Shown: positions 1 to 26,937, counted from the stretch's first letter. The stretch: DNA of 32,349 nucleotides from a virus (IMGVR_UViG_2917865565_000006:1-32349), one strand, 5' to 3'. Numbers and translations: made by a program. The notes: generated by a model from the letters alone, not told the origin.

Positions 1-996
1 TTATGGACGCATTATGGACATTCCTGACACCGGGTTAAGAGTCACAGCATCTTGTAAGAAATCCGGTGCAAAGTGTGCGTAGGTCATAGTTTGCTGAATG
101 TCAGAATGACCCAGGATGCGCTGCAATGTGATTATGTTACCTCCATTCATTATAAAATGTGTGGCAAATGTATGCCTCAAAACATGCACTGCCTGTCCGT
201 CAGGTAAATCGGGTTTTACTTCCCTGAGAGCGTTGCGCACTTTGTAGTAACTGGCATTAAAAAGCCTGCCTGAATTTTTGGTCTTGATCCGTTTAATCAG
301 GTCCTGCGAAACGGGAATTGTCCTGCGCTTTCCGTTTTTAGTTTTCATAAACGTAACCATCTGGTTAATGATGTGTTCAGCTTTCAAATTAGACACTTCA
401 CTCCAGCGTCCACCAGTAGAAAGGCAGACCAGAGTTGCATTTAACTCATCACCATCAAGCATGGATAACAGCCGCGTAATCTCTTCACTGGACAAAAAAG
501 CCATTTCCGTAACAGCTTCACGTAACCGCTTAACCTCACGGAACGGGTTGTGAGAGTGATATTCACCGGCGTCAATTAACTTGGTGAACATCCCGCTCAT
601 TATTGCCAGATGCCGATTTACGCTGGCTGGTTTTAGACCATCGTTCATCATTACAACGCGATAATCAGTTATCGTTTTCTTTGTTAGCTGGTCCGCCCTG
701 GACACTCCCATCTCAGCAAATTTGGCGATTATTGTCGTCAAACGCCCTCGTTCAATATCTCCACGCTCATGTGATTTTCCGTGATATATCCACCATCTGC
801 CTAACAACTCTGTAAGAGTTCGGCGGTCGGCCGGCTTCTCCAACCACTCTTTGTTGTGGAAGTTAACCAGTACATGACGTTCGAATGCCTGAGCTTCACC
901 TTTAGTTTTAAATTTCCGCCTGATACGTTTTCCATCTGCACCCTGCGGTCTGACGTCCACTTCATAACGACCATCATCGAGCTTTTTAATAGACAT
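1..996 (-). CDS. int: Tyrosine integrase (P2 Int-like), 331 aa
   Basis: Minus-strand ORF at the left edge; C-terminal LRHTFAT and LGHSDIQQTMTYAH motifs match the tyrosine-recombinase catalytic signature; sits next to the C repressor as in P2. Confidence 0.9.
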   Translation of the reverse strand: MSIKKLDDGRYEVDVRPQGADGKRIRRKFKTKGEAQAFERHVLVNFHNKEWLEKPADRRTLTELLGRWWIYHGKSHERGDIERGRLTTIIAKFAEMGVSRADQLTKKTITDYRVVMMNDGLKPASVNRHLAIMSGMFTKLIDAGEYHSHNPFREVKRLREAVTEMAFLSSEEITRLLSMLDGDELNATLVCLSTGGRWSEVSNLKAEHIINQMVTFMKTKNGKRRTIPVSQDLIKRIKTKNSGRLFNASYYKVRNALREVKPDLPDGQAVHVLRHTFATHFIMNGGNIITLQRILGHSDIQQTMTYAHFAPDFLQDAVTLNPVSGMSIMRP

Positions 997-4247: not shown

Positions 4248-4519
4248 GTATTCGTATCGAAATTGGCGAACGTTATGTCGTTACCAGTGACAGCTTTCAG
4301 TTTATTCTCCACGAGAAAAAGAGAGCGGAAAGCGGTAAAAACGCTGGTCAGGAATGGCTGGCGGTGGTTGGTTATTACCCGAAATTAAGCCAGCTCGTTT
4401 CCGGCCTGATGCATCACGATATTCTGACCGGAAACGCAAAATCTTTTGCTGATTTAAACGCGCAGGTTGAGCAACTCAGCAAGCGTTGTTCAGAGGCTTT
4501 TGGCTCATATGGCCGTTAA
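4244..4519 (+). CDS. Early-operon hypothetical protein (orf83-like, 91 aa)
   Basis: ORF overlapping the start of A; position matches P2 orf83. Confidence 0.6.
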   Translation: MSIRIEIGERYVVTSDSFQFILHEKKRAESGKNAGQEWLAVVGYYPKLSQLVSGLMHHDILTGNAKSFADLNAQVEQLSKRCSEAFGSYGR

Positions 4520-6791
4520 AGCCTCCGGGCGTTTTGTCCCTCCGTCAGCATTTGCCGCAGGCACCGGTAAGGCGTTTACCGGTGCTTATGCATGGAACGC
4601 GCCACGCGAGGCCGTCGGGCGCGAAAGACCCCTTACACGTGACGAGATGCGTCAGGTGCAAGGTGTTTTATCCACGATTAACCGCCTGCCTTACTTTTTG
4701 CGCTCGCTGTTTACTTCACGCTATGACTACATCCGGCGCAATAAAAGCCCGGTGCACGGGTTTTATTTCCTCACATCCACTTTTCAGCGTCGTTTATGGC
4801 CGCGCATTGAGCGTGTGAATCAGCGCCATGAAATGAACACCGACGCGTCGTTGCTGTTTCTGGCAGAGCGTGACCACTATGCGCGCCTGCCGGGAATGAA
4901 TGACAAGGAGCTGAAAAAGTTTGCTGCCCGTATCTCATCGCAGCTTTTCATGATGTATGAGGAACTCTGCGATGCCTGGGTGGATGCGCATGGCGAAAAA
5001 GAATCGCTGTTTACGGATGAGGCGCAGGCACATCTGTATGGTCATGTTGCTGGCGCTGCACGTGCTTTCAATATTTCCCCGCTTTACTGGAAAAAATACC
5101 GTAAAGGGCAGATGACCACGAGGCAGGCATATTCTGCTATTGCCCGCCTGTTTAACGATGAGTGGTGGACTCATCAGCTTAAAGGCCAGCGTATGCGCTG
5201 GCATGAGGCGTTACTGATTGCTGTCGGGGAGGTCAATAAAGACCGTTCTCCTTATGCCAGTAAACATGCCATTCGTGATGTGCGTGCGCGCCGCCAGGCA
5301 AATCTGGAATTTCTTAAATCGTGTGACCTCGAAAACAGGGAAACCGGCGAGCGCATCGACCTTATCAGTAAGGTGATGGGCAGTATTTCTAATCCTGAAA
5401 TTCGCCGGATGGAGCTGATGAACACCATCGCCGGTATTGAGCGTTACGCCGCTGCAGAGGGTGATGTGGGGATGTTTATCACGCTGACCGCGCCGTCAAA
5501 GTATCACCCGACACGTCAGGTCGGAAAAGGCGAAAGTAAAACCGTCCAGCTAAATCACGGCTGGAACGATGAGGCATTTAATCCAAAGGATGCGCAGCGT
5601 TATCTCTGCCATATCTGGAGCCTGATGCGCACGGCATTCAAGGATAATGATTTACAGGTCTACGGTTTGCGTGTCGTCGAGCCACACCACGACGGAACGC
5701 CGCACTGGCATATGATGCTTTTTTGTAATCCACGCCAGCGTAACCAGATTATTGAAATCATGCGTCGCTACGCGCTCAAAGAGGATGGCGACGAAAGAGG
5801 AGCTGCGCGAAACCGTTTTCAGGCAAAACACCTTAACCGGGGCGGTGCTGCGGGATATATCGCGAAATACATTTCAAAAAACATCGACGGCTATGCACTG
5901 GATGGTCAGCTCGATAACGATACCGGCAGGCCGCTGAAAGACACTGCCGCGGCTGTTACCGCATGGGCGTCAACGTGGCGTATTCCGCAATTTAAAACTG
6001 TTGGCCTGCCGACAATGGGGGCTTACCGTGAACTACGCAAATTACCTCGCGGCGTCAGCATTGCTGATGAGTTTGACGAACGCGTCGAGGCTGCACGCGC
6101 TGCCGCAGACAGTGGCGATTTTGCGCTGTATATCAGCGCGCAGGGTGGGGCAAATGTCCCGCGCGATTGTCAGACTGTCAGGGTCGCCCGTAGTCCGTCG
6201 GATGACGTTAACGAGTACGAGGAAGAAGTCGAGAGAGTGGTCGGCATTTACGCACCGCATCTCGGCGCACGTCATATTCATATCACCAGAACGACGGACT
6301 GGCGCATTGTTCCGAAAGTGCCGGTCGTTGAGCCTTTGACTTTAAAAAGCGGCATCGCCGCGCCTCGGAGTCCTGTCAATAACTGTGGAAAGCTCACCGG
6401 CGGTGATACTTCGTTACCGGCTCCCACACCGACTGAGCATGCTGCAGCGGTGTTAAATTTAATAGATGAAGGGATTCTAAGTTGGACCGAGCCAGGCATT
6501 ATGAAGGTACTTAGAGACTTATTGAGTAATGAACTGAAATGCAGTAATCGTTCACAGCAGAGCTTTACCCCTTTCATTGGTCGAAGCTACTTTCCTGCCC
6601 CATCCGCCCGGTTGACAAGGCAGGAGAGAAAGACTATCCCGAAAATTAAGGTTCTTCTTGCACAAAGTGACATTCAGGCTAGTTATTGGGAGCTTGAAGC
6701 TCTCGCTCGCGGAGCTGTTTTGGATTTTGGGCATAAGCGTTTTAAATTTGATAACGATATCGACTTTTTTGACAGACAGCGTGAGTGGTAG
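4509..6791 (+). CDS. A: Replication initiation endonuclease gpA (rolling-circle initiator), 760 aa from ATG 4509
   Basis: Large ORF at the end of the early operon; HWHMMLF metal-binding motif; length from 4509 is within one residue of the 761 aa I recall for P2 A. The ORF-track start at 4467 is probably an in-frame extension. Confidence 0.9.
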   Translation: MAVKASGRFVPPSAFAAGTGKAFTGAYAWNAPREAVGRERPLTRDEMRQVQGVLSTINRLPYFLRSLFTSRYDYIRRNKSPVHGFYFLTSTFQRRLWPRIERVNQRHEMNTDASLLFLAERDHYARLPGMNDKELKKFAARISSQLFMMYEELCDAWVDAHGEKESLFTDEAQAHLYGHVAGAARAFNISPLYWKKYRKGQMTTRQAYSAIARLFNDEWWTHQLKGQRMRWHEALLIAVGEVNKDRSPYASKHAIRDVRARRQANLEFLKSCDLENRETGERIDLISKVMGSISNPEIRRMELMNTIAGIERYAAAEGDVGMFITLTAPSKYHPTRQVGKGESKTVQLNHGWNDEAFNPKDAQRYLCHIWSLMRTAFKDNDLQVYGLRVVEPHHDGTPHWHMMLFCNPRQRNQIIEIMRRYALKEDGDERGAARNRFQAKHLNRGGAAGYIAKYISKNIDGYALDGQLDNDTGRPLKDTAAAVTAWASTWRIPQFKTVGLPTMGAYRELRKLPRGVSIADEFDERVEAARAAADSGDFALYISAQGGANVPRDCQTVRVARSPSDDVNEYEEEVERVVGIYAPHLGARHIHITRTTDWRIVPKVPVVEPLTLKSGIAAPRSPVNNCGKLTGGDTSLPAPTPTEHAAAVLNLIDEGILSWTEPGIMKVLRDLLSNELKCSNRSQQSFTPFIGRSYFPAPSARLTRQERKTIPKIKVLLAQSDIQASYWELEALARGAVLDFGHKRFKFDNDIDFFDRQREW

Positions 6792-6880
6792 TTGAAAAAA
6801 ACGGTCAAACGGGGTAACAATATGTTATTGTTGAGGAATTGTTTGTTATGGTTTAATTTTTATACACGGCAGAAAAGCAT

Positions 6881-8106
6881 ATGAGCATGGTTGAATGGAT
6901 AAGCCACGAGAAAAAAGATAGCCTGATACTATTTGTACATGGATTAAATGGTGGTTTGGAAACATGGAACTTTAATAAAGAAACTTCATTTCCAAAACTA
7001 TTAGCAGAAGATGAAGACATTAGCAATGTATTTGATATTGCATGTTTCAATTATTTCACCAAATTTACACAAACGTATGCTAAAAACGTCAGGATTATTG
7101 GCTCGTATTTTCTCTAAGAAAAATAAGTTAGAGAGAAATTTACCAACTGATGAAATAGCTGAGTTATTGTATACTGAGATTAGGGTAACGCTAAGTGATT
7201 ACTCTCGAATTATAATAATCGCCCATAGTATGGGGGGGTTAATATCAAAAAATCTAATTCTAAAAAAAGTTGAGCATGAGGAACAATCTAATATAATTGG
7301 ATTCATTTCGTTAGCAGTCCCTCACTTTGGTGCTAAATTAGCGAATATAACTTCAATGGTATCTTCAAATGCTCAGTTAGTAGATCTTGGATTGTTAAGT
7401 GAAGCGACTGATACATTGAATAGGCGCTGGATAAATTGTAGCAAAAAACTTCCTATCACTAGATATGTTTATGGTTCTCATGACACTATAGTTGATAAAA
7501 AAAAGTGCATTACCGATGGATAGTGAACGAAATAACTCAATTGCAGTTAATGAAGGGCATAGCTCAATTTGCAAGCCCGAAAACAGCTCGTCTACAGTGT
7601 TTGTTGCGGTAAAGCAATTTATTCAGCAGATAAATTTAGAAGCACCCAAGAAGATATGCGTTGAGCGTTTTTCTGATGAGAAACAATATGATAATGAGTA
7701 TTTCGTCTTAAAAATGATTGTCGCAGATATACATCAGGATATCGCTATGCATGCAAAGGAATATTATTATAATGCTGAGCTTGCGAGAAATATTTTTACG
7801 AGTGATTACGATAGGAAACTACTTGGTCATTTGTATTCTAAAATAAGGGAGATTTACCAGGAAGAGTATGAGCAATACATCGCGAATTCAATTTCCCCAG
7901 ATAAATTTATTGCTGCTGTTCATAGACGAATAGCCCAGGAGGATAAGTCGTCGTTAGATTCTCTTATAAAAAGTTTAGAAACGATACATAAGAAAGGAAT
8001 GTTGCATCAACTGGCTAACAAAAATGACAGGGATATTGTCTGGTCATCCGAAACCAGCGTAGAAACTTTGGAGCAATTACGGCGAGGTAATCATGAAGAA
8101 AAATAA
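6881..8106 (+). CDS. Alpha/beta-hydrolase (lipase/esterase-like) candidate defense effector with C-terminal helical domain; reading frame broken twice (three ORF-track pieces 6881-7117, 7011-7523, 7492-8106)
   Basis: Oxyanion-hole motif LILFVHGLNGG (about 6935-6955), nucleophile elbow AHSMGG (Ser codon 7227-7229) and candidate His in EGHSSICKP lie in three different frames; pieces join if one A is removed from the A5 run at 7082-7086 and from the A8 run at 7497-7504. AT-rich, unlike the backbone. Confidence 0.6.
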
Positions 8107-8606
8107 CTTGCCGTATATTCCTCTTGATGAAGAGTATAGCTTGAATTTTGCTATACTTGCCATTGCTATATCTATATTATCTCATAGCAAAAAAGGAGTG
8201 TTATCATTAGATATTAATAAAATACAAATTTTTTATGTATCTGATAAAAAACCCATCAAAAATAGATTATGCTCTTACAGTTTCGGGGAAAAAACCTGCT
8301 TGTGTCGAGTCCCAGTTAACTTATACAATAAAGAGTTTTTCATCAAATGTAGATATCTTATTCGACAATTCCAAAGTGAAATATCTTATAAAAATTATGT
8401 CATTGCGGGGATTGCTCTCAGCTGAGAAAAAAAATAATGAGAGTGTTAAATTATTTTTATCTGAAAAAGGTAAGGAATTTGCTAGCTCATTGACTGATGG
8501 ATATTTTAAAGAAATAAAACGACTATCCGAAGCATTGTTACCGCTACAAGCATTGCCTACATCTAAGTTAAACTCTGTTATAAATCAAGTCTTCAAGGAG
8601 AAATGA
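8093..8606 (+). CDS. Small middle component of the candidate three-gene system (about 170 aa), frame broken once (pieces 8093-8425 and 8235-8606)
   Basis: Start ATG 8093 with GAGGT RBS overlaps the hydrolase stop; stop overlaps the ATPase start (ATGATGA at 8603); two overlapping ORFs in different frames joinable at an A6 run (about 8246-8300). No recognisable domain. Confidence 0.5.
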
Positions 8607-10574
8607 TGAAATCATATCTCAATATCAATAGTTTGATTCTTGTTGGCGTTCGTAAAAACTACGTCACTACTTTTTATAAAGGTCTCAATGTTATCTACGG
8701 AGACTCTGACACAGGTAAGTCAAGCATTCTGGAGTTTATTAATTATCTTTTAGGTGCTAGCTCTATAGATTTAGCAGATGAAATAAAAACATCAGTAAAC
8801 TATGCTGCTCTTGAAGTAGTGATCAATGATACTGTATTCACAATCGTAAGAGATATCTATGATCATAAAAAAGCAATAGAAGTTTATCGTTGTAAGTTTG
8901 ATGATTTACATAAACATTTTCCGAAAAAATACGCTCCTAATTATAGCCCCTTATCAAATGTTGATGGTGTTTTTTCGGAGTTTTTACTTGATAGTCTTAA
9001 TTTTCCAAAGATTGAAATTAAGGTGTCTCCTTCTAAAGCTCATTCACAGATGCGCAGGTTAAGTTTTAGAAATATATATAAATTTGTTTATGTAAGTCAG
9101 GATGATATTGGTAGTAAATCTTTCTTGCGATTGGGTGATTGGTCCCGCTACGCATTTACGAAAGAAGTTTTTAAATACATGTTCAATGTGTTGGATGAAA
9201 GCATCGCCAGACTCCAAGGTGAAATATCTGCAAAAAGTAGTTTAGTAACTGAATTAAATAAGAAGTATCAGATAATATCTGAATTTCTTCGCGATACAGA
9301 CTATGAAACAATTGAATCAATTGATGATGAGATTAATAGGATAGATCTTGTTTTAGAAGAACTTGTTGCAGGTTTGTCTGCTCTCGATAAAAATATGAAA
9401 GCGGATTCCATGCAGTATACAGAATTGAAAGATGCTCACAATTTTATTTCGCTTAAATACAAAGAGTGCATATTAAATATTAGTGCGCTTGAGGATAAGA
9501 TTGATAAATATTCGCGGTTAAAAAATGACTATGATAATGATATTGAAAAACTCAAAGCGATTAAAACAGCAAATTCTCGCATTGGTGTATTGGATAAGGA
9601 AGTATTTTCCTGTCCAATCTGTGATAGCCACATTAAAATAGATGATTCTGATTTTCCATTTGAAATTTCATCAGAAAAAGATCTTAATGAAGAGTTGAAT
9701 TCACTTAGTCGACGTAGACGAAATATTAATGACATGATCTCAGAAATGTCATTTAAATTAAAAAAAGAATCAGGTTATAAAAAAAGAATTAGATGAACGA
9801 CTTGACGAGTTGAGAGAGTTGATTGACGAAGAAAGCCAGTCAATGATTACACCATTCTTGACTCAGAGAGATTTTTATATTAAAGAGATATCAAAAAATG
9901 AGAAAGTTAGGGAGCAGTTAGTAAAAGATTTGAAGGTTAGAAACCAGCAAGAGGAACTGCTTGAAAAGTATCAGGTACTGAGAAAAGATATTGAAGCATT
10001 AACTGAACGCTTGGAGGCGTTAAAGAAAAACGCACCTAGCATGGAGGGCATTTTACAAGGTTTAGGTGATAGATTTAGTCAGTATTTGAAGGGTATTAAT
10101 ATCAAAAACAGAACGGGGATAAAAATCTCTGAAAGCTATTACATTCCTGTTATAAGAGAAAAAGAATATTTTAAAATAACGTCCGGAGGTTTGAGAACTA
10201 TTTCTTCTATTGGGTATCTTTTGTCTATTCTTGATTATGCAATAGATCATAATGTTAACCATCCTTTACTTTTGATATTTGATACGGTTGGCAAATATTT
10301 AGGGAAACAGACCAAGGAAAAATATTCAAAAGAAACTCTTGCAGTCGAGGATGACCTTGAGGGAATGTCAGATCCGATGAAGTATCAAAATATTTATGAA
10401 CAACTATTGAATACAGTTCAAAAAGCAGAAAGAAAAAATGTTCCGTGCCAGATTATATTAGTTGATAATGATTTGCCTAATTCGTTTTCTACTGGTGAAC
10501 TTTCGAATATTATCGCTCATTATAGCTCGGTTGGTGAGGACGGTTTGCCTTTAGGTTTAATTGATGACCTTTAA
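8603..10574 (+). CDS. Rad50/SMC-like ABC ATPase with coiled coil and CxxC zinc hook (about 657 aa if joined); frame broken once (pieces 8603-9796 and 9810-10574)
   Basis: N-terminal Walker A GDSDTGKSS, Q-loop-like VYVSQDD, long charged helical region, CPICDSH (9611-9631), then in the next ORF the signature-like TSGGLRTIS and Walker B LLLIFD; frame 0 is open from 9762 and joins if one A is removed from the A7 run 9779-9785. Confidence 0.65.
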
Positions 10575-10703
10575 TACTATACATGCATTTTTTTGAATTA
10601 GATTGCATGTGGATAATGAGTCTATTTAGTGAAGGGAGGGTTTTGTGAGACGAGACTTTCGATAAAAATGCAACCGCATTAAAACCGCCCCATGAAGCGG
10701 GCG

Positions 10704-10722
10704 GGCGAGGCGGGGAAAGCAC
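10704..10722. other. Candidate cos cohesive-end site (GGCGAGGCGGGGAAAGCAC) within a GC-rich packaging region
   Basis: 19-nt string matches the P2 cohesive-end sequence as I recall it; lies between the last rightward cargo gene and the minus-strand Q-P terminase/portal genes, where cos sits on the P2 map. Confidence 0.55.
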
Positions 10723-10863
10723 TGCGCGCTGGCGGTGGTGCTGATTTTATTTTTTCAGCGTCTGAGCGCGTCGTGACGGCGTTTAGATTGTGCGCCGGGG
10801 CGTTGGGTGTCTGCGGGCTGTTTTGTGCGGTGGTGAGCGTGTGAGGGCGTGATGGCGGGTTGT

Positions 10864-10885
10864 AAAAAAGCCGCCCGCAGGCGGC
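10864..10885 (-). terminator. Rho-independent terminator downstream of Q (minus strand)
   Basis: On the minus strand GCCGCC-TGCG-GGCGGC hairpin followed by T6, starting about 5 nt after the Q stop codon. Confidence 0.7.
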
Positions 10886-10890
10886 GATGT

Positions 10891-11880
10891 TCAGCCGTTG
10901 TCAGTGTCCAGTGAGTAGTTTTTAAAGCGGATGACCTCCTGACTGAGCCAGCCGTTTATTTCCCGAATCCTGTCCTGTAACGGGATAAGCTCATTGCGGA
11001 CAAAGACCTTTGCCACTTTCTCAATATCACCCAGCGACCCGACGTTCTCCGGCTTGCCCCCCATCAACTGAAAGGGGATGCGGTGCGCGTCCAGCAGGTC
11101 AGCGGCGCTGGCTTTTTTGATATTAAAAAAATCGTCCTTCGTTGCCACTTCACTGAGCGGGATAATTTTAATGCCGTCGGCTTTCCCCTGTGGGGCATAG
11201 AGAAACAGATTTTTAAAGTTATTGCGGCCTTTCGACTTAACCATGTTTTCGCGAAGCATTTCGATATCGTTGCGATCCTGCACGGCATCGGTGACGTACA
11301 TGATGTATCCGGCATGTGCGCCGTTTTCGTAATACTTGCGGCGGAACAGCGTGGCCGACTCATTCAGCCAGGCAGAGTTAAGGGCGCTGAGATATTCCGG
11401 CAGGCCGTACAGCTCCTGATTAATATCCGGCTCCAGCAGGTGAAACACTGAGCCGGGCGTGAAAGGTGTCGGCTCGTTGAAGGACGGCACCCACCAGTAA
11501 ACATCCTCCTCCACACCACGGCGGGTATATTTTGCCGGTGAGGTTTCCAGTCTGATGACCTTACCGGTGGTGCTGTATCGCTTTTCCAGAAACGCATTAC
11601 CGAACACCAGAAAATCCAGCACAAAGCGGCTGAAATCCTGTTGCGAAAGCCACGGATGCGGGATAAATGTCGAGGCCAGAATATTACGTTTGACGTAAAT
11701 CGGTGAGCTGTGATGCACGGCAGCACGCAGGCTTTTTGCCAGACCGGTAAAGCTGACCGGTGGCTCATACCATCTGCCGTTACTGATGCACTCGACGTAA
11801 TCCAGAATGTCACGGCGGTCGAGTACCGGCACCGGCTCACCAAAGGTGAATGCCTCCATTTTCGGGGCGCTGGCGGTCAT
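10891..11880 (-). CDS. Q: Portal protein gpQ (329 aa as called; P2 Q is about 344 aa from memory)
   Basis: Minus-strand ORF adjacent to cos and upstream of the large terminase, as in P2; N-terminus may be mis-called (see finding on the T8 run at 11881-11888). Confidence 0.85.
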   Translation of the reverse strand: MTASAPKMEAFTFGEPVPVLDRRDILDYVECISNGRWYEPPVSFTGLAKSLRAAVHHSSPIYVKRNILASTFIPHPWLSQQDFSRFVLDFLVFGNAFLEKRYSTTGKVIRLETSPAKYTRRGVEEDVYWWVPSFNEPTPFTPGSVFHLLEPDINQELYGLPEYLSALNSAWLNESATLFRRKYYENGAHAGYIMYVTDAVQDRNDIEMLRENMVKSKGRNNFKNLFLYAPQGKADGIKIIPLSEVATKDDFFNIKKASAADLLDAHRIPFQLMGGKPENVGSLGDIEKVAKVFVRNELIPLQDRIREINGWLSQEVIRFKNYSLDTDNG

Positions 11881-11925
11881 TTTTTTTTGCCGCAGGTCGC
11901 GGTGTTTTCCCTTTTTTCTTGCTCA

Positions 11926-13698
11926 TCAGTAAAACTCCAGAATGGTGGATGTCAGCGGGGTGCTGATACCGGCAGTGAGTGGCTCATTTAACAGGGCGTG
12001 CATGGTCGCCCAGGCGAGGTCGGCGTGGCTGGCTTCCTCGCTGCGGCTGGCCTCATAGGTGGCGCTGCGTCCGCTGCTGGTCATGGTCTTGCGGATAGCC
12101 ATAAACGAGCTGGTGATGTCGGTGGCGCTGACGTCATATTCCAGACAGCCACGACGGATAACGTCTTTTGCCTTGAGCACCATTGCGGTTTTCATTTCCG
12201 GCGTGTAGCGGATGTCGCGCGCGGCGGGATAGAACGAGCGCACGAGCTGGAACACGCCGACACCGAGGCCGGTGGCATCAATACCGATGTATTCGACGTT
12301 ATATTTTTCGGTGAGTTTGCGGATGGATTCCGCCTGGGTGGCAAAGTCCATGCCTTTCCACTGATGGCGCTCAAGTATTCTGAATTTGCCACCGGCCACC
12401 ACCGGCGGTGCCAGCACCACGCATCCGGCACTGTCGCCACGGTGTGACGGGTCGTAACCAATCCATACCGGGCGGGAGCCGAACGGATTCGCGGCAAACG
12501 GCGCATAGTCTTCCCATTCTTCCAGCGTGTCGACCATGCAGCGTTGCAGCTCCTCGAACGGGAATACCGACGCCTTGTCGTCAACAAATTCACACATGAA
12601 CAGGTTTTTAAAATCGTCGGCGCTGTTTTCACGTTTGAGCTGCTCAATGTCGAACAGCGTGCAGCCACCTTTCAGGGCGTCCTCAATGGTGACAATCTGC
12701 CGCCACTGGCCGTCCGCACAGAGAAGACCTCCGGCAAGGGCGTTATGACTGACGTCGATTTCCACGCGTTCGGCGGCGCTGGCGCGTCCCCGGTTGAACA
12801 GTTCACCCGACCAGAACGGGTAGGCGTCGTGCGCCAGCGTGGACGGGGTGGAGAAATAGGTCGAGCGCAGGTGACTCTGTGAGGCCATACCTGATGCCAC
12901 CTTACGCAGTACCTGAAAATTCGGGATCCAGAAAATCTCGTCGACGTACAGGTCGCCGTTATGGCTCTGTGCGGTGTTGGAGTTGGTGCCGAGAAAAATC
13001 AGTTTTGCGCCGTTATTGCCCAGGACAATCGGGTCACCGGTCAGGTCAACGTCAACCAGCCGGGCAAAGGCGATGATGTATTCACGGAACACATACGCCT
13101 GCGTTTTACTGGCCGACAGAAAAATCTGGTTATGACCGGTTTTCAGGGCGCGCAGCAGCGCCTCGCGGGAAAAATAAAACGTCGCGCCAATCTGGCGGGA
13201 TTTCAGGATATCGCGGATGCGGTGCTCAAGCCCGGCACGATACCAGTGCAACTGATAGTCGAAAGACTGCTCAAAGAAAATCTGCTCCAGCTTTTCGATG
13301 GCCTCGTCACTGAAAAAATTCTTTTTCGGTTTGCGCCGTCCGCCTTTGTTGCGGTTAGCGACGTTCGGATTAAGGTCTGCCTCGTTGCCGGTCTGACTGT
13401 AGCGGTTGACCCGTGCCAGTCGTTCAATCTGGCGTCCGAGCAGGTCAATTTCCTTGAAGTCACCACCGGTTTTCTGCGGTTTGATGATGAGCTGGGTCAG
13501 CCGCGCTTCCAGACTCATTTCGACACGGCTGATGGGGGCAACGCTGTCCCAGCCGTCGCGTTGTTTCCAGCTCTGCACCGTCGGGCGTTTCATCTGCAAC
13601 ATGGCGGCAATCTGCGGTACGGAAAACCCCTGCCAGTACAGCAGCGCCGCCTGACGACGCGGGTCGTGTAAAAGAGTGGTGTCTGTGGTGATGGTCAT
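11926..13698 (-). CDS. P: Terminase large (ATPase) subunit gpP, 590 aa from ATG at 13698
   Basis: Minus-strand ORF next to Q; start at MTITTDTT with GAGGT RBS gives 590 aa, equal to P2 P as I recall; N-terminal HTH-like region. Confidence 0.9.
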   Translation of the reverse strand: MTITTDTTLLHDPRRQAALLYWQGFSVPQIAAMLQMKRPTVQSWKQRDGWDSVAPISRVEMSLEARLTQLIIKPQKTGGDFKEIDLLGRQIERLARVNRYSQTGNEADLNPNVANRNKGGRRKPKKNFFSDEAIEKLEQIFFEQSFDYQLHWYRAGLEHRIRDILKSRQIGATFYFSREALLRALKTGHNQIFLSASKTQAYVFREYIIAFARLVDVDLTGDPIVLGNNGAKLIFLGTNSNTAQSHNGDLYVDEIFWIPNFQVLRKVASGMASQSHLRSTYFSTPSTLAHDAYPFWSGELFNRGRASAAERVEIDVSHNALAGGLLCADGQWRQIVTIEDALKGGCTLFDIEQLKRENSADDFKNLFMCEFVDDKASVFPFEELQRCMVDTLEEWEDYAPFAANPFGSRPVWIGYDPSHRGDSAGCVVLAPPVVAGGKFRILERHQWKGMDFATQAESIRKLTEKYNVEYIGIDATGLGVGVFQLVRSFYPAARDIRYTPEMKTAMVLKAKDVIRRGCLEYDVSATDITSSFMAIRKTMTSSGRSATYEASRSEEASHADLAWATMHALLNEPLTAGISTPLTSTILEFY

Positions 13699-22031: not shown

Positions 22032-22554
22032 TTCGCGACTGCTGCCGACCGGCTCATCACCGCTTGAGGTCGCCGCCGCAAAAGCCTGTGCGGAAATTGA
22101 AAAAACACCGGTCAGTATTCGTGAGCTGTGGAACCCGGACTCCTGTCCGGCAAATCTGCTGCCGTGGCTGGCGTGGGCGTTTTCGGTCGACAGGTGGGAT
22201 GAAAAGTGGCCGGAAGCGACAAAACGCGCCGTTATCCGCGATGCCTATTTCATCCACTGTCATAAAGGCACTATCGGCGCAATCCGGCGTGTGGTGGAGC
22301 CGCTCGGCTATCTCATTAACGTAAAGGAATGGTGGGAGACAAACGACCCGCCCGGAACCTTCCGCCTTGATATCGGCGTACTGGAAAGCGGCATCACGGA
22401 GGAGATGTATCTGGAAATGGAACGGCTGATTGCCGATGCCAAACCCGCAAGTCGCCACCTTATCGGTCTGAACATTATCCAGGACATTCCCGGCTATCTG
22501 TATACAGGCGGTGTGGTCTGTGATGGTGATGTTATTACTGTTTATCCCGGATAA
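22024..22554 (+). CDS. I: Baseplate protein gpI (176 aa)
   Basis: Synteny and length match P2 I. Confidence 0.85.
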   Translation: MSDSRLLPTGSSPLEVAAAKACAEIEKTPVSIRELWNPDSCPANLLPWLAWAFSVDRWDEKWPEATKRAVIRDAYFIHCHKGTIGAIRRVVEPLGYLINVKEWWETNDPPGTFRLDIGVLESGITEEMYLEMERLIADAKPASRHLIGLNIIQDIPGYLYTGGVVCDGDVITVYPG

Positions 22555-22564
22555 GTGAGAAACA

Positions 22565-25087
22565 ATGAGCACGAAATTTAAAACCGTTATCACTACTGCC
22601 GGAGCCGCAAAGCTGGCAGCCGCCACTGTCCCCGGCGGGAAAAAAGTAAACCTGTCTGCAATGGCCGTGGGTGACGGTAATGGCAAATTACCGGTGCCGG
22701 ATGCCGGTCAGACGAAACTGGTGCATGAGGTCTGGCGTCACGCTCTGAATAAAGTCAGCGTGGATAACAAGAATAAAAACTATATCGTGGCTGAACTGGT
22801 TGTACCGCCCGAAGTGGGCGGCTTCTGGATGCGTGAGCTTGGTCTGTATGACGATGCCGGAACACTGATTGCGGTATCCAACATGGCAGAAAGCTATAAG
22901 CCAGAACTGGCTGAAGGCTCCGGACGTGCGCAGACCTGCCGCATGGTTATTATTCTCAGCAACGTGGCGTCCGTTGAACTGAGTATTGATGCCAGCACGG
23001 TGATGGCGACGCAGGATTACGTCGATGACAAAATCGCAGAGCATGAGCAGTCCCGCCGCCATCCTGACGCCACGCTGACAGAAAAAGGCTTTACTCAGTT
23101 AAGCAGTGCAACAAACAGCACCAGTGAGTCATTGGCGGCAACGCCAAAAGCGGTCAAGGCAGCAAATGACAACGCAAATTCACGTCTGGCGAAAAATCAG
23201 AATGGTGCAGATATCCAGGATAAATCAGCTTTTCTGGACAATGTTGGCGTTACCAGCCTGACGTTTATGAAAAACAATGGCGAAATGCCGGTTGATGCTG
23301 ATCTGAATACGTTTGGTCCTGTTAAGGCTTATGTGGGTGTCTGGTATAAATCCACATCCTCCAACGCAACACTGGAGAAAAATTTCCCTGAAGACGGTGC
23401 AGTCGGTGTTCTTGAGGTATTCAATGGCGGTAATTTTGCAGGAATGCAGCGTTATACCACCAGAACTGGCAATGTTTATATGCGCAACCTTTCTGGCACC
23501 TGGAATGGCTCAGACGGTCCGTGGAGCTACTGGCGTCAGATTCAGTCAGCAACACGCCCCCTGAGTACAACCATTGACCTGAACACGCTCGGAGACGCAG
23601 AGCATCTTGGCTTATGGCGAAACAGTAGTGGCTCTATCGCTTCATTTGACCGCAACTATCCGGAAGAAGGAAGTTATGGTCAGGGACTCCTTGAAGTTCT
23701 TGAAGGTGGTGGGTACTCACGCATGCAACGCTACACGACCCGCCGTGGGAATGTATATGTTCGCTGCCTTTCTGCTACATGGAATGCAGAGAATCCACAG
23801 TGGGAACCGTGGTTAAGAGTCGGTCATCAGTCAGAGAGTCGTTATTACGACGGGGATTTGAATGATGTGACTTCACCAGGTATTTACAGCGTTACAGGGA
23901 AGGCGACAAACGGTCCAATGCAGGATACCGCTGGAGCGACACTGCTTGGGATACTGGAAGTAATCAGACGTTTTGATGGTGTATCTGTCTGGCAGCGTTA
24001 CACAACCACAGGGAAAGCAGAAACCACAAAGGGGCGCACTTTTGAGCGCATCTACGCCGGGAGCACATGGACTGAATGGCGAGAAGTATATAACTCCTTT
24101 TCGTTGCCCCTGAATCTGGGTATCGGCGGTGCAGTGGCAAAACTCACCAGCCTGGACTGGCAGACCTACGATTTTGTGCCGGGCAGTCTGATAACCGTTC
24201 GGCTTGATAACATGACCAATATTCCCGACGGTATGGACTGGGGCGTCATTGATGGCAACCTGATAAACATCTCAGTCGGTCCGAGTGATGATTCCGGTAC
24301 GGGGCGCTCAATGCATGTGTGGCGCAGCACTGTAAGTAAAGCGAACTACCGCTTTTTTATGGTGCGTATTTCAGGAAATCCGGGAAGCCGCACGATCACG
24401 ACAAGACGTGTGCCAATTATCGACGAAGCTCAGACATGGGCGGCGAAACAAACCTTCAGCGCCGGTCTTTCAGGCGAACTGTCCGGCAATGCTGCTACAG
24501 CTACAAAGCTGAAAACGGCACGAAATATTAATGGTGTCAAATTTGATGGCACCGGCGATATAAATATTAATACGCTGGTATCCCGGAATCGCGTCACAGC
24601 ATTAAGCGGGAGTGCAAAGGGGACGCCTGGTATTCAGATGTATGAGGCATATAACAATGGCTACCCTTACGCCTATGGCAATGTGCTTCATCTTACGGGA
24701 GTGTCCGCAGTTGGAGAAGGTGAGTTACTTATCGGCTGGAGCGGCACCAGTGGAGGTTACGCGCCAGCATATATCCGTTCAAGGCGGGATACAGATGATG
24801 CTCAATGGTCTGGATGGGCGCAAATTTATACGACAGCTCATAAACCATCGGCAGGTGATATTGGTGCTTATACTCAGGCGGAATGTAATTCGCGTTTTAT
24901 TACAGGTATTCGCTTAGGTGGTTTGTCATCCCTTCCAACGTGGAATGGTACTGGCTGGCATGACAGGTCAGGGCATGTTCTTACTGGTGTCGTCAATAGT
25001 AATACTGATGAATTAATTGATATCGCGCAGGCAAGACCTGTTCAGTATTGTATTAATGGCACATGGTATAACGCAGGGAGTATTTAA
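22565..25087 (+). CDS. H: Tail fiber protein gpH (840 aa, longer than the 669 aa I recall for P2 H), with three tandem repeat modules in the distal half
   Basis: N-terminus typical of P2-family fibers; three roughly 75-aa repeats each containing a QRYTT..GNVY/..TW-type core (about 23330-24095). Confidence 0.85.
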
Positions 25088-25617
25088 TGATGATGCATTT
25101 AAAAAATATTAAGGCAGGGAATCCAAAAACTATTGAACAATATGAATTAACCAAACGATTTAATATTGTCTGGCTATGGTCAGATGATGGTAAAAACTGG
25201 TATGAGGAACAAAAGAATTTCCAGCCAGACACTTTAAAAATGGCCTACGACGAGAACGGTATTATTCGTTGCATTGAGAAAGATGTGTCAATGCTCAACC
25301 CTGATGGCTTGAGTGTTGTTGAGTTACCGAATATAACCGCCAACCGTCGCGCTGATATTTCAGGTAACTGGATGTTCAAAGATGACACTGTAATTAAACG
25401 TGTATATACGGATGCAGAACGGCAGCAGCAAGCCGAAGTCCGAAAGTCAACCTTGCTTGCAGAAGCTGAGGCATTGATTCAGCCGCTGGAGCGTGCGGTC
25501 AGGCTGAATATGGCAACAGATGAGGAGCGCAGCCGACTGGAGGCATGGGAACGCTACAGCGTTCTGGTCAGTCGTGTGGATCCTGCAAATCCTGAATGGC
25601 CGGAACTACCACAATAA
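25087..25617 (+). CDS. G: Tail fiber assembly chaperone gpG (176 aa)
   Basis: Start overlaps the H stop (ATGA); AT-richer than the backbone; position matches P2 G. Confidence 0.8.
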
Positions 25618-25621
25618 ATAC

Positions 25622-25650
25622 AGGCGGGCGGATTGCCCGCCTTTTCTTTA
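25622..25650 (+). terminator. Rho-independent terminator after G
   Basis: AGGCGGGC-GGATT-GCCCGCCT hairpin followed by TTTCTTTATCTGTTGTTT. Confidence 0.75.
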
Positions 25651-25746
25651 TCTGTTGTTTCATCCACTGACCAGTCAGGACAAATAGCGTCTCATGCCCT
25701 GTACAACTGAAAATACCACTCACCCATTAACCACGGAGTTAAACGG

Positions 25747-26937
25747 ATGAGTGATTATCATCACGGAGTGCAGGTGCTGGAGATTAACGACGGCACCCGC
25801 GTCATTTCCACCGTATCCACCGCCATTGTCGGCATGGTCTGCACGGCCAGCGATGCGGATGCGGAAACCTTCCCCCTCAATAAACCGGTGCTGATTACCA
25901 ATGTGCAGAGCGCAATTGCAAAGGCCGGTAAAAAAGGCACGCTGGCGGCATCGTTGCAGGCCATCGCCGACCAGTCAAAACCGGTCACCGTTGTCGTGCG
26001 CGTGGAAGACGGCACCGGCGACGACGAAGAAACGAAACTCGCGCAGACCGTTTCCAATATCATCGGCACCACTGACGAAAACGGTCAGTACACCGGACTG
26101 AAAGCCCTGCTGGCGGCGGAATCGGTAACCGGTGTTAAACCGCGTATTCTCGGTGTGCCGGGGCTGGATACCAAAGAGGTGGCTGTTGCACTGGCATCAG
26201 TCTGTCAGAAGCTGCGCGCTTTCGGGTATATCAGCGCATGGGGCTGTAAGACCATTTCCGAGGTGAAAGCTTACCGCCAGAATTTCAGCCAGCGTGAGCT
26301 GATGGTCATCTGGCCGGATTTCCTCGCATGGGATACGGTCACCAGTACCACCGCCACCGCGTATGCCACCGCCCGTGCGCTGGGGCTGCGTGCCAAAATC
26401 GACCAGGAGCAGGGATGGCATAAAACGCTGTCCAACGTCGGGGTGAACGGTGTTACCGGCATCAGCGCATCTGTATTCTGGGATTTGCAGGAGTCCGGCA
26501 CCGATGCTGACCTGCTGAACGAGTCAGGCGTCACAACGCTGATTCGCCGCGACGGTTTCCGCTTCTGGGGTAACCGTACCTGCTCTGATGACCCGCTGTT
26601 CCTCTTTGAAAACTACACCCGCACCGCGCAGGTGCTGGCCGACACGATGGCTGAAGCGCACATGTGGGCGGTGGACAAGCCCATCACCGCAACGCTGATT
26701 CGCGACATCGTTGACGGCATCAATGCCAAATTCCGTGAGCTGAAAACAAACGGCTATATCGTGGATGCGACCTGCTGGTTCAGCGAAGAATCCAACGATG
26801 CGGAAACCCTTAAGGCCGGAAAACTGTATATCGACTACGACTATACCCCGGTGCCTCCTCTTGAAAACCTGACCCTGCGCCAGCGTATTACCGATAAATA
26901 CCTGGCAAATCTGGTCACCTCGGTTAACAGCAATTAA
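25747..26937 (+). CDS. FI: Tail sheath protein gpFI (396 aa)
   Basis: Synteny and length match P2 FI. Confidence 0.9.
   Translation: MSDYHHGVQVLEINDGTRVISTVSTAIVGMVCTASDADAETFPLNKPVLITNVQSAIAKAGKKGTLAASLQAIADQSKPVTVVVRVEDGTGDDEETKLAQTVSNIIGTTDENGQYTGLKALLAAESVTGVKPRILGVPGLDTKEVAVALASVCQKLRAFGYISAWGCKTISEVKAYRQNFSQRELMVIWPDFLAWDTVTSTTATAYATARALGLRAKIDQEQGWHKTLSNVGVNGVTGISASVFWDLQESGTDADLLNESGVTTLIRRDGFRFWGNRTCSDDPLFLFENYTRTAQVLADTMAEAHMWAVDKPITATLIRDIVDGINAKFRELKTNGYIVDATCWFSEESNDAETLKAGKLYIDYDYTPVPPLENLTLRQRITDKYLANLVTSVNSN

Follow-up and report, generated by a model that had tools for sequence, protein, structure and literature searches.

Lamassu defence systems combine a coiled-coil ATP-binding cassette (ABC) ATPase, LmuB, with an effector, LmuA, and a middle component, LmuC, and abortive-infection activity against phages that requires all three genes is on record for homologues (PMC12663957; bioRxiv 10.1101/2022.05.11.491447). 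Here we analyzed a gene located at positions 8603-10574 of a viral DNA stretch of 32,349 nucleotides (IMGVR_UViG_2917865565_000006:1-32349, hereafter the window) and identified it as the lmuB gene of a type II (short) Lamassu/ABC-3C system.

Many LmuB proteins bear a CPxCG-like hook, and the Walker B glutamate is generally replaced (review PMC10586767). In short Lamassu the Walker B motif reads hhhhD[Q/S/T/E], and the copy number of CxxC motifs has been mapped onto the LmuB tree (PMC12663957). The ATPases of ABC-3C systems were described by Krishnan et al. (2020), as cited in PMC10586767 and bioRxiv 10.1101/2025.06.23.660979. For the Salmonella LmuB, both the zinc hook and the ATP-binding motifs are needed for defence, and a state in which LmuA is sequestered has been described, with LmuA and LmuC docked beside the hook (bioRxiv 10.1101/2025.03.14.643221). 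The same study measured about 1 ATP/min for a complex of LmuB carrying D-Q at Walker B with DNA and left open whether hydrolysis is needed. DNA-end sensing and LmuA oligomerisation have also been reported for Lamassu, and the E. coli system Lamassu Ec-Lipase, with a lipase effector and a zinc hook, protects against lambda-vir, its Walker A and lipase mutants being defective (PMC12663957). As for location, the site between gpA and gpQ is a defence hotspot of P2 (Rousset et al. 2022, PMC9122126), and Lamassu members in prophage hotspots of this sort were noted by Millman et al. (bioRxiv 10.1101/2022.05.11.491447).

Identification of the gene as lmuB

The ORF listing gives two open reading frames (ORFs) on the + strand in different frames, at 8603-9796 (397 amino acids) and 9810-10574 (254 amino acids), which fuse into a single protein of 656 amino acids when one A is deleted from the A7 run at 9779-9785. 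This joined protein differs from RefSeq WP_001325828.1 of E. coli O157:H7 at 5 residues. On the opposite strand, the listing has no ORF of more than 70 amino acids within lmuB, and promoter-like sites are fewer than the shuffled expectation. Translation returned every motif that the original prediction had quoted for this gene, each in its place, and the features of lmuB are as follows.

8603-10574, + strand: lmuB, Rad50-like coiled-coil ABC ATPase, 656 amino acids when joined (PADLOC, Foldseek)
8699-8725, + strand: Walker A (P-loop) GDSDTGKSS with K39, aligning to GASRTGKSA of 9hqu
9092-9106, + strand: Q-loop region VSQDD with Q166, aligning to a Gln of Salmonella LmuB
9611-9622, + strand: putative zinc-hook motif CPIC (C337, P338, C340), within CPICDSH at 9611-9631, at the predicted coiled-coil apex
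9779-9785, + strand: A7 homopolymer, A6 in all relatives; the frame shift leads to a stop at 9794-9796 that splits lmuB
10182-10205, + strand: ABC signature (C-loop) SGGLRTIS; S527, G528 and G529 invariant
10266-10286, + strand: Walker B LLLIFD with D560, then T561 at the catalytic-Glu position; D560 and T561 invariant
10287-10310, + strand: D-loop region VGKYLGKQ, with G567 at the position of the Rad50 D-loop Asp in a weak Rad50 comparison
10449-10472, + strand: H-loop-equivalent strand QIILVDND, with N622 at the position of the Rad50 switch His by pattern comparison only

The joined protein matched the PADLOC LmuB model PDLC03862 over residues 2-656 (E-value 1.5e-235), and 12 further LmuB models matched as well. 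The NCBIfam models for Rad50, SMC and RecF matched only far below their cut-offs, at 15-52 bits against 300-1000 for Rad50 and SMC, including the curated Rad50/SbcC models NF041034 (22.7 bits vs 1000) and PRK03918 (15 vs 700). We assigned the gene to lmuB on the basis of these PADLOC matches, together with the Pfam matches of the locus and the failure of the Rad50, SMC and RecF models to approach their cut-offs. The Walker A pattern Gx4GK[S/T] is present as GDSDTGKS and the Walker B pattern hhhhD[Q/S/T/E] as LLIFD-T.

Conservation of the motifs was assessed in 42 homologues (down to 43% identity), in which G33, G38, K39, S40, Q166, C337, P338 and C340 are invariant, as are S527-G528-G529, D560 and T561. 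When the profile was aligned to the Salmonella LmuB of known structure (9hqu_A; E 6.9e-12), Walker A, the Q-loop, the hook and Walker B fell in register, “CPiC” pairing with “CPMC” and “lliDtvGk” with “LILDQPSQ”, so that T561 stands opposite the Gln of the latter. The Walker B alignment, which the original prediction had offered tentatively, thus holds against a solved LmuB, and its suggestion of a Walker B without the catalytic Glu extends across the clade. The agreement of the motifs is far beyond chance.

Putative zinc hook, coiled coil and fold

An AlphaFold2 model was made on a protein 87% identical to the joined LmuB (P0001) and reached a mean predicted local distance difference test score (pLDDT) of 85.9. 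Residues 1-190 and about 500-655 form its split ABC head. A helical arm ascends through 198-325, interrupted near 230 and 265, and a helix descends through 357-475, giving coiled-coil arms of about 120 residues each. The two helices are joined by a 31-residue loop (326-356) that holds the CPxC motif; its confidence of 56-69 is lower, as expected for a monomer modelled without zinc or a partner. Since this loop lies between the two helices, the model places the cysteines of LmuB at the apex of the coiled coil, where the original prediction of a Rad50-type hook had located them. By analogy with the hooks of related proteins, the CPxC motif would act as a zinc hook.

To place the motif in its family, we searched 1.84 billion cluster representatives with a profile and obtained 3280 relatives at E <= 0.001; the family counts given here and below are drawn from 110 full-length proteins among the best 150 of these. 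CPxC was found at the aligned position in 102 of the 110.

In a Foldseek search, the top matches of the model were chains of Lamassu LmuB, with 9uxh_F first (9.6e-21), followed by 9hqx, 9hqu, 9nyg and 9ux7, the E-values of LmuB chains spanning 9.6e-21 to 3.4e-14. Rad50 (7zr1, 1.7e-11) ranked below them, and SMC and JetC came after Rad50. HMM searches (hidden Markov models), family conservation, the AlphaFold model and the structure search therefore agree on the Rad50/SMC-like ABC ATPase that had been proposed from the sequence, LmuB having been named at that stage only as part of a comparison set.

These results also bear on whether the gene could encode a genuine DNA-repair orthologue of Rad50/SbcC working with an Mre11/SbcD nuclease, rather than an immune sensor. 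Several homologues bear the name “exonuclease SbcC” or “Rad50” in their sources, the CxxC hook and ABC head are common to Rad50, and Rad50 structures are among the Foldseek matches. Yet the E-values of LmuB structures are better than that of Rad50 by about 9 orders of magnitude, the Rad50 and SMC models stay at the low scores given above, the coiled coil is far shorter at about 120 residues per arm, and the catalytic Glu is missing, its place being taken by the invariant Thr561. No SbcD/Mre11 gene lies adjacent, the neighbours being LmuA, LmuC, gpA and the portal gene, and the locus is the cargo of a prophage hotspot. We regard a repair function of this kind as having next to no probability and retain the assignment to LmuB. 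An SMC protein in the strict sense was considered separately and rejected: the apex is a 31-residue CPxC loop without a globular hinge, and the SMC models scored 17-26 bits against cut-offs of 567-729.

Walker B, D-loop and H-loop positions

Among 109 cluster representatives, the residue following the Walker B Asp is T in 52, S in 48, G in 6, N in 2 and A in 1, and in none of the 109 is it E or Q. The non-Glu Walker B is a trait of the whole clade and no quirk of the copy in the window.

We also compared the protein with the C-terminus of P. furiosus Rad50 using hhalign, which gave a weak match (E 0.17). In it, T561 falls opposite the catalytic Glu of “LILDEPTPYLD” and SGG pairs with LSGGE, in a register that agrees with the LmuB alignment; the comparison is a lead rather than a test. 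A Gly occupies the G567 position in 81 of the 109 representatives, the equivalence of this position to the Rad50 D-loop being drawn from the same weak comparison. Further on, a conserved strand “QhhhVDN”, corresponding to residues 615-620 of the AlphaFold2 model, carries the N622 position, which is Asn in 83 of 89 representatives and His in 2; judging from the pattern, N622 would be the equivalent of the H-loop switch His of Rad50. D-T/S is thus universal in a large branch of LmuB and is accompanied by non-canonical residues at the D-loop and H-loop positions. In the literature that we found, this triple departure from the Rad50 catalytic set is noted for the Walker B position only.

Slow or regulated ATP hydrolysis, which the original prediction had raised, fits what is published on LmuB and may by analogy apply to the Thr variant. 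With Thr after the Walker B Asp, Gly in the D-loop and Asn in the H-loop, ATP is probably hydrolysed very slowly and serves chiefly as a binding switch. Going further, the branch that combines D-T/S, D-loop Gly and H-loop Asn could have lost hydrolysis entirely and use ATP binding as a pure one-shot latch, an idea that we put forward tentatively and hold to be rather doubtful. If true, such a latch would set the branch apart in mechanism from the D-Q LmuBs, whose turnover persists at about 1 ATP/min. This branch offers a simple target for testing whether hydrolysis is needed in Lamassu activation.

The lmuA-lmuC-lmuB operon and its prophage setting

Two further Lamassu genes lie upstream of lmuB on the same strand, in the order lmuA-lmuC-lmuB.

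6881-8106, + strand: lmuA, effector with an alpha/beta-hydrolase and a CTD8 docking domain; three ORFs through +1 insertions at 7082 and 7497
8093-8606, + strand: lmuC, middle component (MC4) of 170 amino acids; two ORFs through a +1 T at 8229 (T5 to T6)

LmuA is a DUF676/PGAP1-like serine esterase or lipase at its N-terminus, with the GxSxG nucleophile elbow AHSMGG encoded at 7221-7238, and a CTD8 domain at its C-terminus (Pfam: CTD8 1.7e-35, DUF676 4e-9, plus PGAP1 and alpha/beta-hydrolase matches; PADLOC: 3.5e-108). Its intact orthologue has 407 amino acids, from which the corrected translation of the window differs at 3. LmuC matched Pfam MC4 (5e-27) and the PADLOC LmuC model (1.5e-52), and the corrected protein is 2 residues off that of O157:H7. 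The start of lmuC overlaps the end of lmuA by 14 nucleotides and its stop overlaps the start of lmuB by 4 nucleotides (ATGA), as expected for one operon.

GC (guanine plus cytosine) content is 32-34% in 6850-10600 and 52-60% in the flanks. The Lamassu genes lie between the gpA replication endonuclease gene (4467-6791) and the minus-strand portal and terminase genes; a P2-like E. coli prophage carries the locus as low-GC cargo in its gpA-gpQ defence hotspot. Matches to positions 6800-10700, at 95-99% identity, were found in 96 complete E. coli genomes, many of them O157:H7, and the records examined annotate the intact trio as “ABC-three component system protein” (407 amino acids), “ABC-three component system middle component 4” (170 amino acids) and “AAA family ATPase” (656 amino acids).

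At its ends the window has an integrase ORF (1-996, minus strand) and the point where the ogr gene of the O157 prophage stops, so that its 32.3 kb resemble a single complete genome of a P2-like prophage or phage. Two segments, 1-2771 and 22458-25654, gave no alignment to the O157:H7 prophage, which matches the remainder at about 97%. Segment 1-2771 is the integrase and immunity end, and the second holds a different tail-fibre gene (22565-25087) with its assembly gene (25087-25617); the tail-fibre genes are followed by the sheath gene (25747-26937) with no cargo genes in between. Among prophages, the best match of the structural module reaches only about 97.5% identity. The stretch 10575-10890, which separates lmuB from the portal gene, is non-coding and adjoins cos; it contains terminator-like hairpins at 10685-10704, 10726-10741 and 10870-10885, and a cluster of small indels relative to the O157 prophage at 10787-10807.

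Frameshifts in the Lamassu locus

Indels were called against two reference loci, giving 33-34 substitutions and exactly four indels in the Lamassu region. All four are +1 insertions, at 7082 (A4 to A5), 7497 (A7 to A8), 8229 (T5 to T6) and 9779-9785 (A6 to A7), and deleting them restores the reading frames of lmuA, lmuC and lmuB. The corrected LmuA, LmuC and LmuB differ from those of O157:H7, whose intact operon encodes WP_000063136.1, WP_000739990.1 and WP_001325828.1, at 3, 2 and 5 residues (10 in total). Elsewhere in the part of the window alignable to O157, only one more net coding indel was found, a +1 (T8 to T9) at 11880-11888, where two reference P2-like prophages have T8. It frameshifts the portal gene (about 10891-11926, minus strand) near codon 15, and an in-frame ATG right after the run leaves an ORF of 329 amino acids instead of 344. 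All five net coding indels relative to the relatives are thus +1 in A/T homopolymers. The extra A of lmuB is present in none of the 84 complete E. coli genomes that carry the segment, all of which have A6.

The uniform +1 changes in A/T runs, the involvement of a core virion gene and the mostly synonymous substitutions point to sequencing or assembly errors, and we consider this origin of the homopolymer insertions likely. The alternative is that the frameshifts are real and that recent slippage has inactivated each of the three Lamassu genes, for instance because the toxicity of an abortive-infection lipase was selected against, in which case the “ATPase” would be a pseudogene giving at most a 397-amino-acid N-terminal fragment. 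As the sequence stands, all three genes do contain stops; the related Lamassu Ec-Lipase is toxic when highly expressed (PMC12663957); and the exact 397-amino-acid fragment has no record in public assemblies, so that an intact version in the same strain is not attested. The distribution of the insertions also speaks for inactivation, since 4 of the 5 fall within the 3.7-kb defence locus, where about 20 of the 63 runs of at least 6 bases are found, although this enrichment is mild (estimated p about 0.04). Against it, events that are each a +1 in an A/T run carry the signature of a systematic error, the fifth of them strikes the portal gene, the lmuB insertion is missing from all the complete genomes, and the 34 nucleotide differences, mostly synonymous, produce only the 10 amino-acid changes. 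Defence pseudogenes are, moreover, reportedly rare in P2-like prophages (bioRxiv 10.64898/2026.02.27.708500). On balance real inactivation appears unlikely.

The breaks are located in A/T runs of 5-8 bases, and runs of such length are known slippage sites in general. They could accordingly be read as an ON/OFF switch that tunes a toxic system through phase variation or through transcriptional or translational slippage. Four sites in three genes would then need simultaneous correction, the population shows no heterogeneity (A6 in 84 of 84 genomes), and the lmuB frame would need a +1 (or -2) shift at the A7 run, which is inefficient; we deem such a switch highly improbable. With sequencing or assembly errors as the preferred origin, an annotation based on ORFs is misleading for this window, as defence genes will wrongly appear fragmented or missing and the portal protein truncated.

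Proposed mechanism and its weighing

Family membership, motif conservation, fold and apex position come directly from the present analysis, and the mechanism was taken from solved Lamassu complexes and carried over by homology. Two LmuB chains would pair via their coiled-coil arms of about 120 residues and the apical CPxC zinc hook. A single copy each of LmuC and LmuA would sit on the dimer near the hook, the effector being kept sequestered via LmuC and CTD8. ATP binding and engagement of the heads on phage DNA ends or replication intermediates would then release LmuA, and the freed LmuA may oligomerise and kill the infected cell (abortive infection). As the effector is an esterase or lipase, its target is presumably membrane lipids.

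Taken as a whole, we hold it very probable that the gene encodes the LmuB sensor ATPase of a type II Lamassu in a P2-like hotspot, working by the mechanism known from its homologues, with frameshifts that are likely errors. Several points weigh against this explanation. In Foldseek, the solved LmuB chains share only about 15-16% identity with the protein. The sequence as written lacks intact ORFs, no full-length LmuA, LmuC or LmuB being translatable from it, and the insertions are mildly concentrated in the Lamassu locus. Zinc binding, dimerisation, ATPase rate and lipid targeting are attributed to this system by analogy with its relatives, and the release-and-oligomerise step would be an extrapolation for a lipase effector, as the solved complexes carry Cap4 nucleases. 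Lastly, the residues mutated in Lamassu Ec-Lipase are LmuB K42 and LmuA H215, compared with K39 and H200 or H226 here; with this different numbering, Ec-Lipase is a homologue and not the protein of the window.

Comparison with known systems

The protein resembles Rad50/SbcC in its ABC ATPase head, antiparallel coiled coil, CxxC motif for dimerisation through a zinc hook and presumed DNA-end sensing. It differs in lacking an Mre11/SbcD partner, in its far shorter arms, in missing the HMM cut-offs widely and, relative to the Rad50 catalytic set, in the changes Glu to Thr, D-loop Asp to Gly and, by pattern, H-loop His to Asn. With the P2 old/tin locus (PMC9122126) it shares the insertion site, which adjoins cos and is flanked by gene A and the portal gene Q, and the nature of a low-GC defence cargo; unlike old/tin, the cargo here is a Lamassu.

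Among solved structures, the best fold matches are the LmuACB of Salmonella enterica (9hqu/9hqx) and the DdmABC/LmuACB of Vibrio cholerae (9ny5, 9nyg, 9uxh), with 9hqu also the best sequence-profile match. These systems have a Cap4 nuclease effector, other CTD and MC families and D-Q at Walker B, where D-T is found here, and the Vibrio LmuB has lost its hook.

The closest known systems are short/type II Lamassu, especially the lipase-effector clade with a zinc hook (“Clade H”, Lamassu Ec-Lipase, PMC12663957). Common to both are a split ABC head in an LmuB of about 650 amino acids, a short coiled coil, a single apical CPxC hook, a Walker B of hhhhD followed by a non-Glu residue, the order lmuA-lmuC-lmuB, a CTD-bearing effector of the alpha/beta-hydrolase or lipase type, a middle component of an MC family, an E. 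coli host and a location in a prophage hotspot. Nothing categorical differs, apart from the frameshifts of the copy in the window. Structures have been solved for the family, a near-identical intact O157:H7 copy (99% identity) is already annotated in RefSeq, and the system, its location, the zinc hook and the non-Glu Walker B are already published, nothing in the window departing from them. To this we add the +1 homopolymer insertions, probably errors, as the cause of the fragmentation, the universality of D-T/S in the branch and the accompanying non-canonical D-loop and H-loop. The value of the analysis lies mostly in a correct annotation, that of a textbook Lamassu in the P2 gpA-gpQ defence hotspot.

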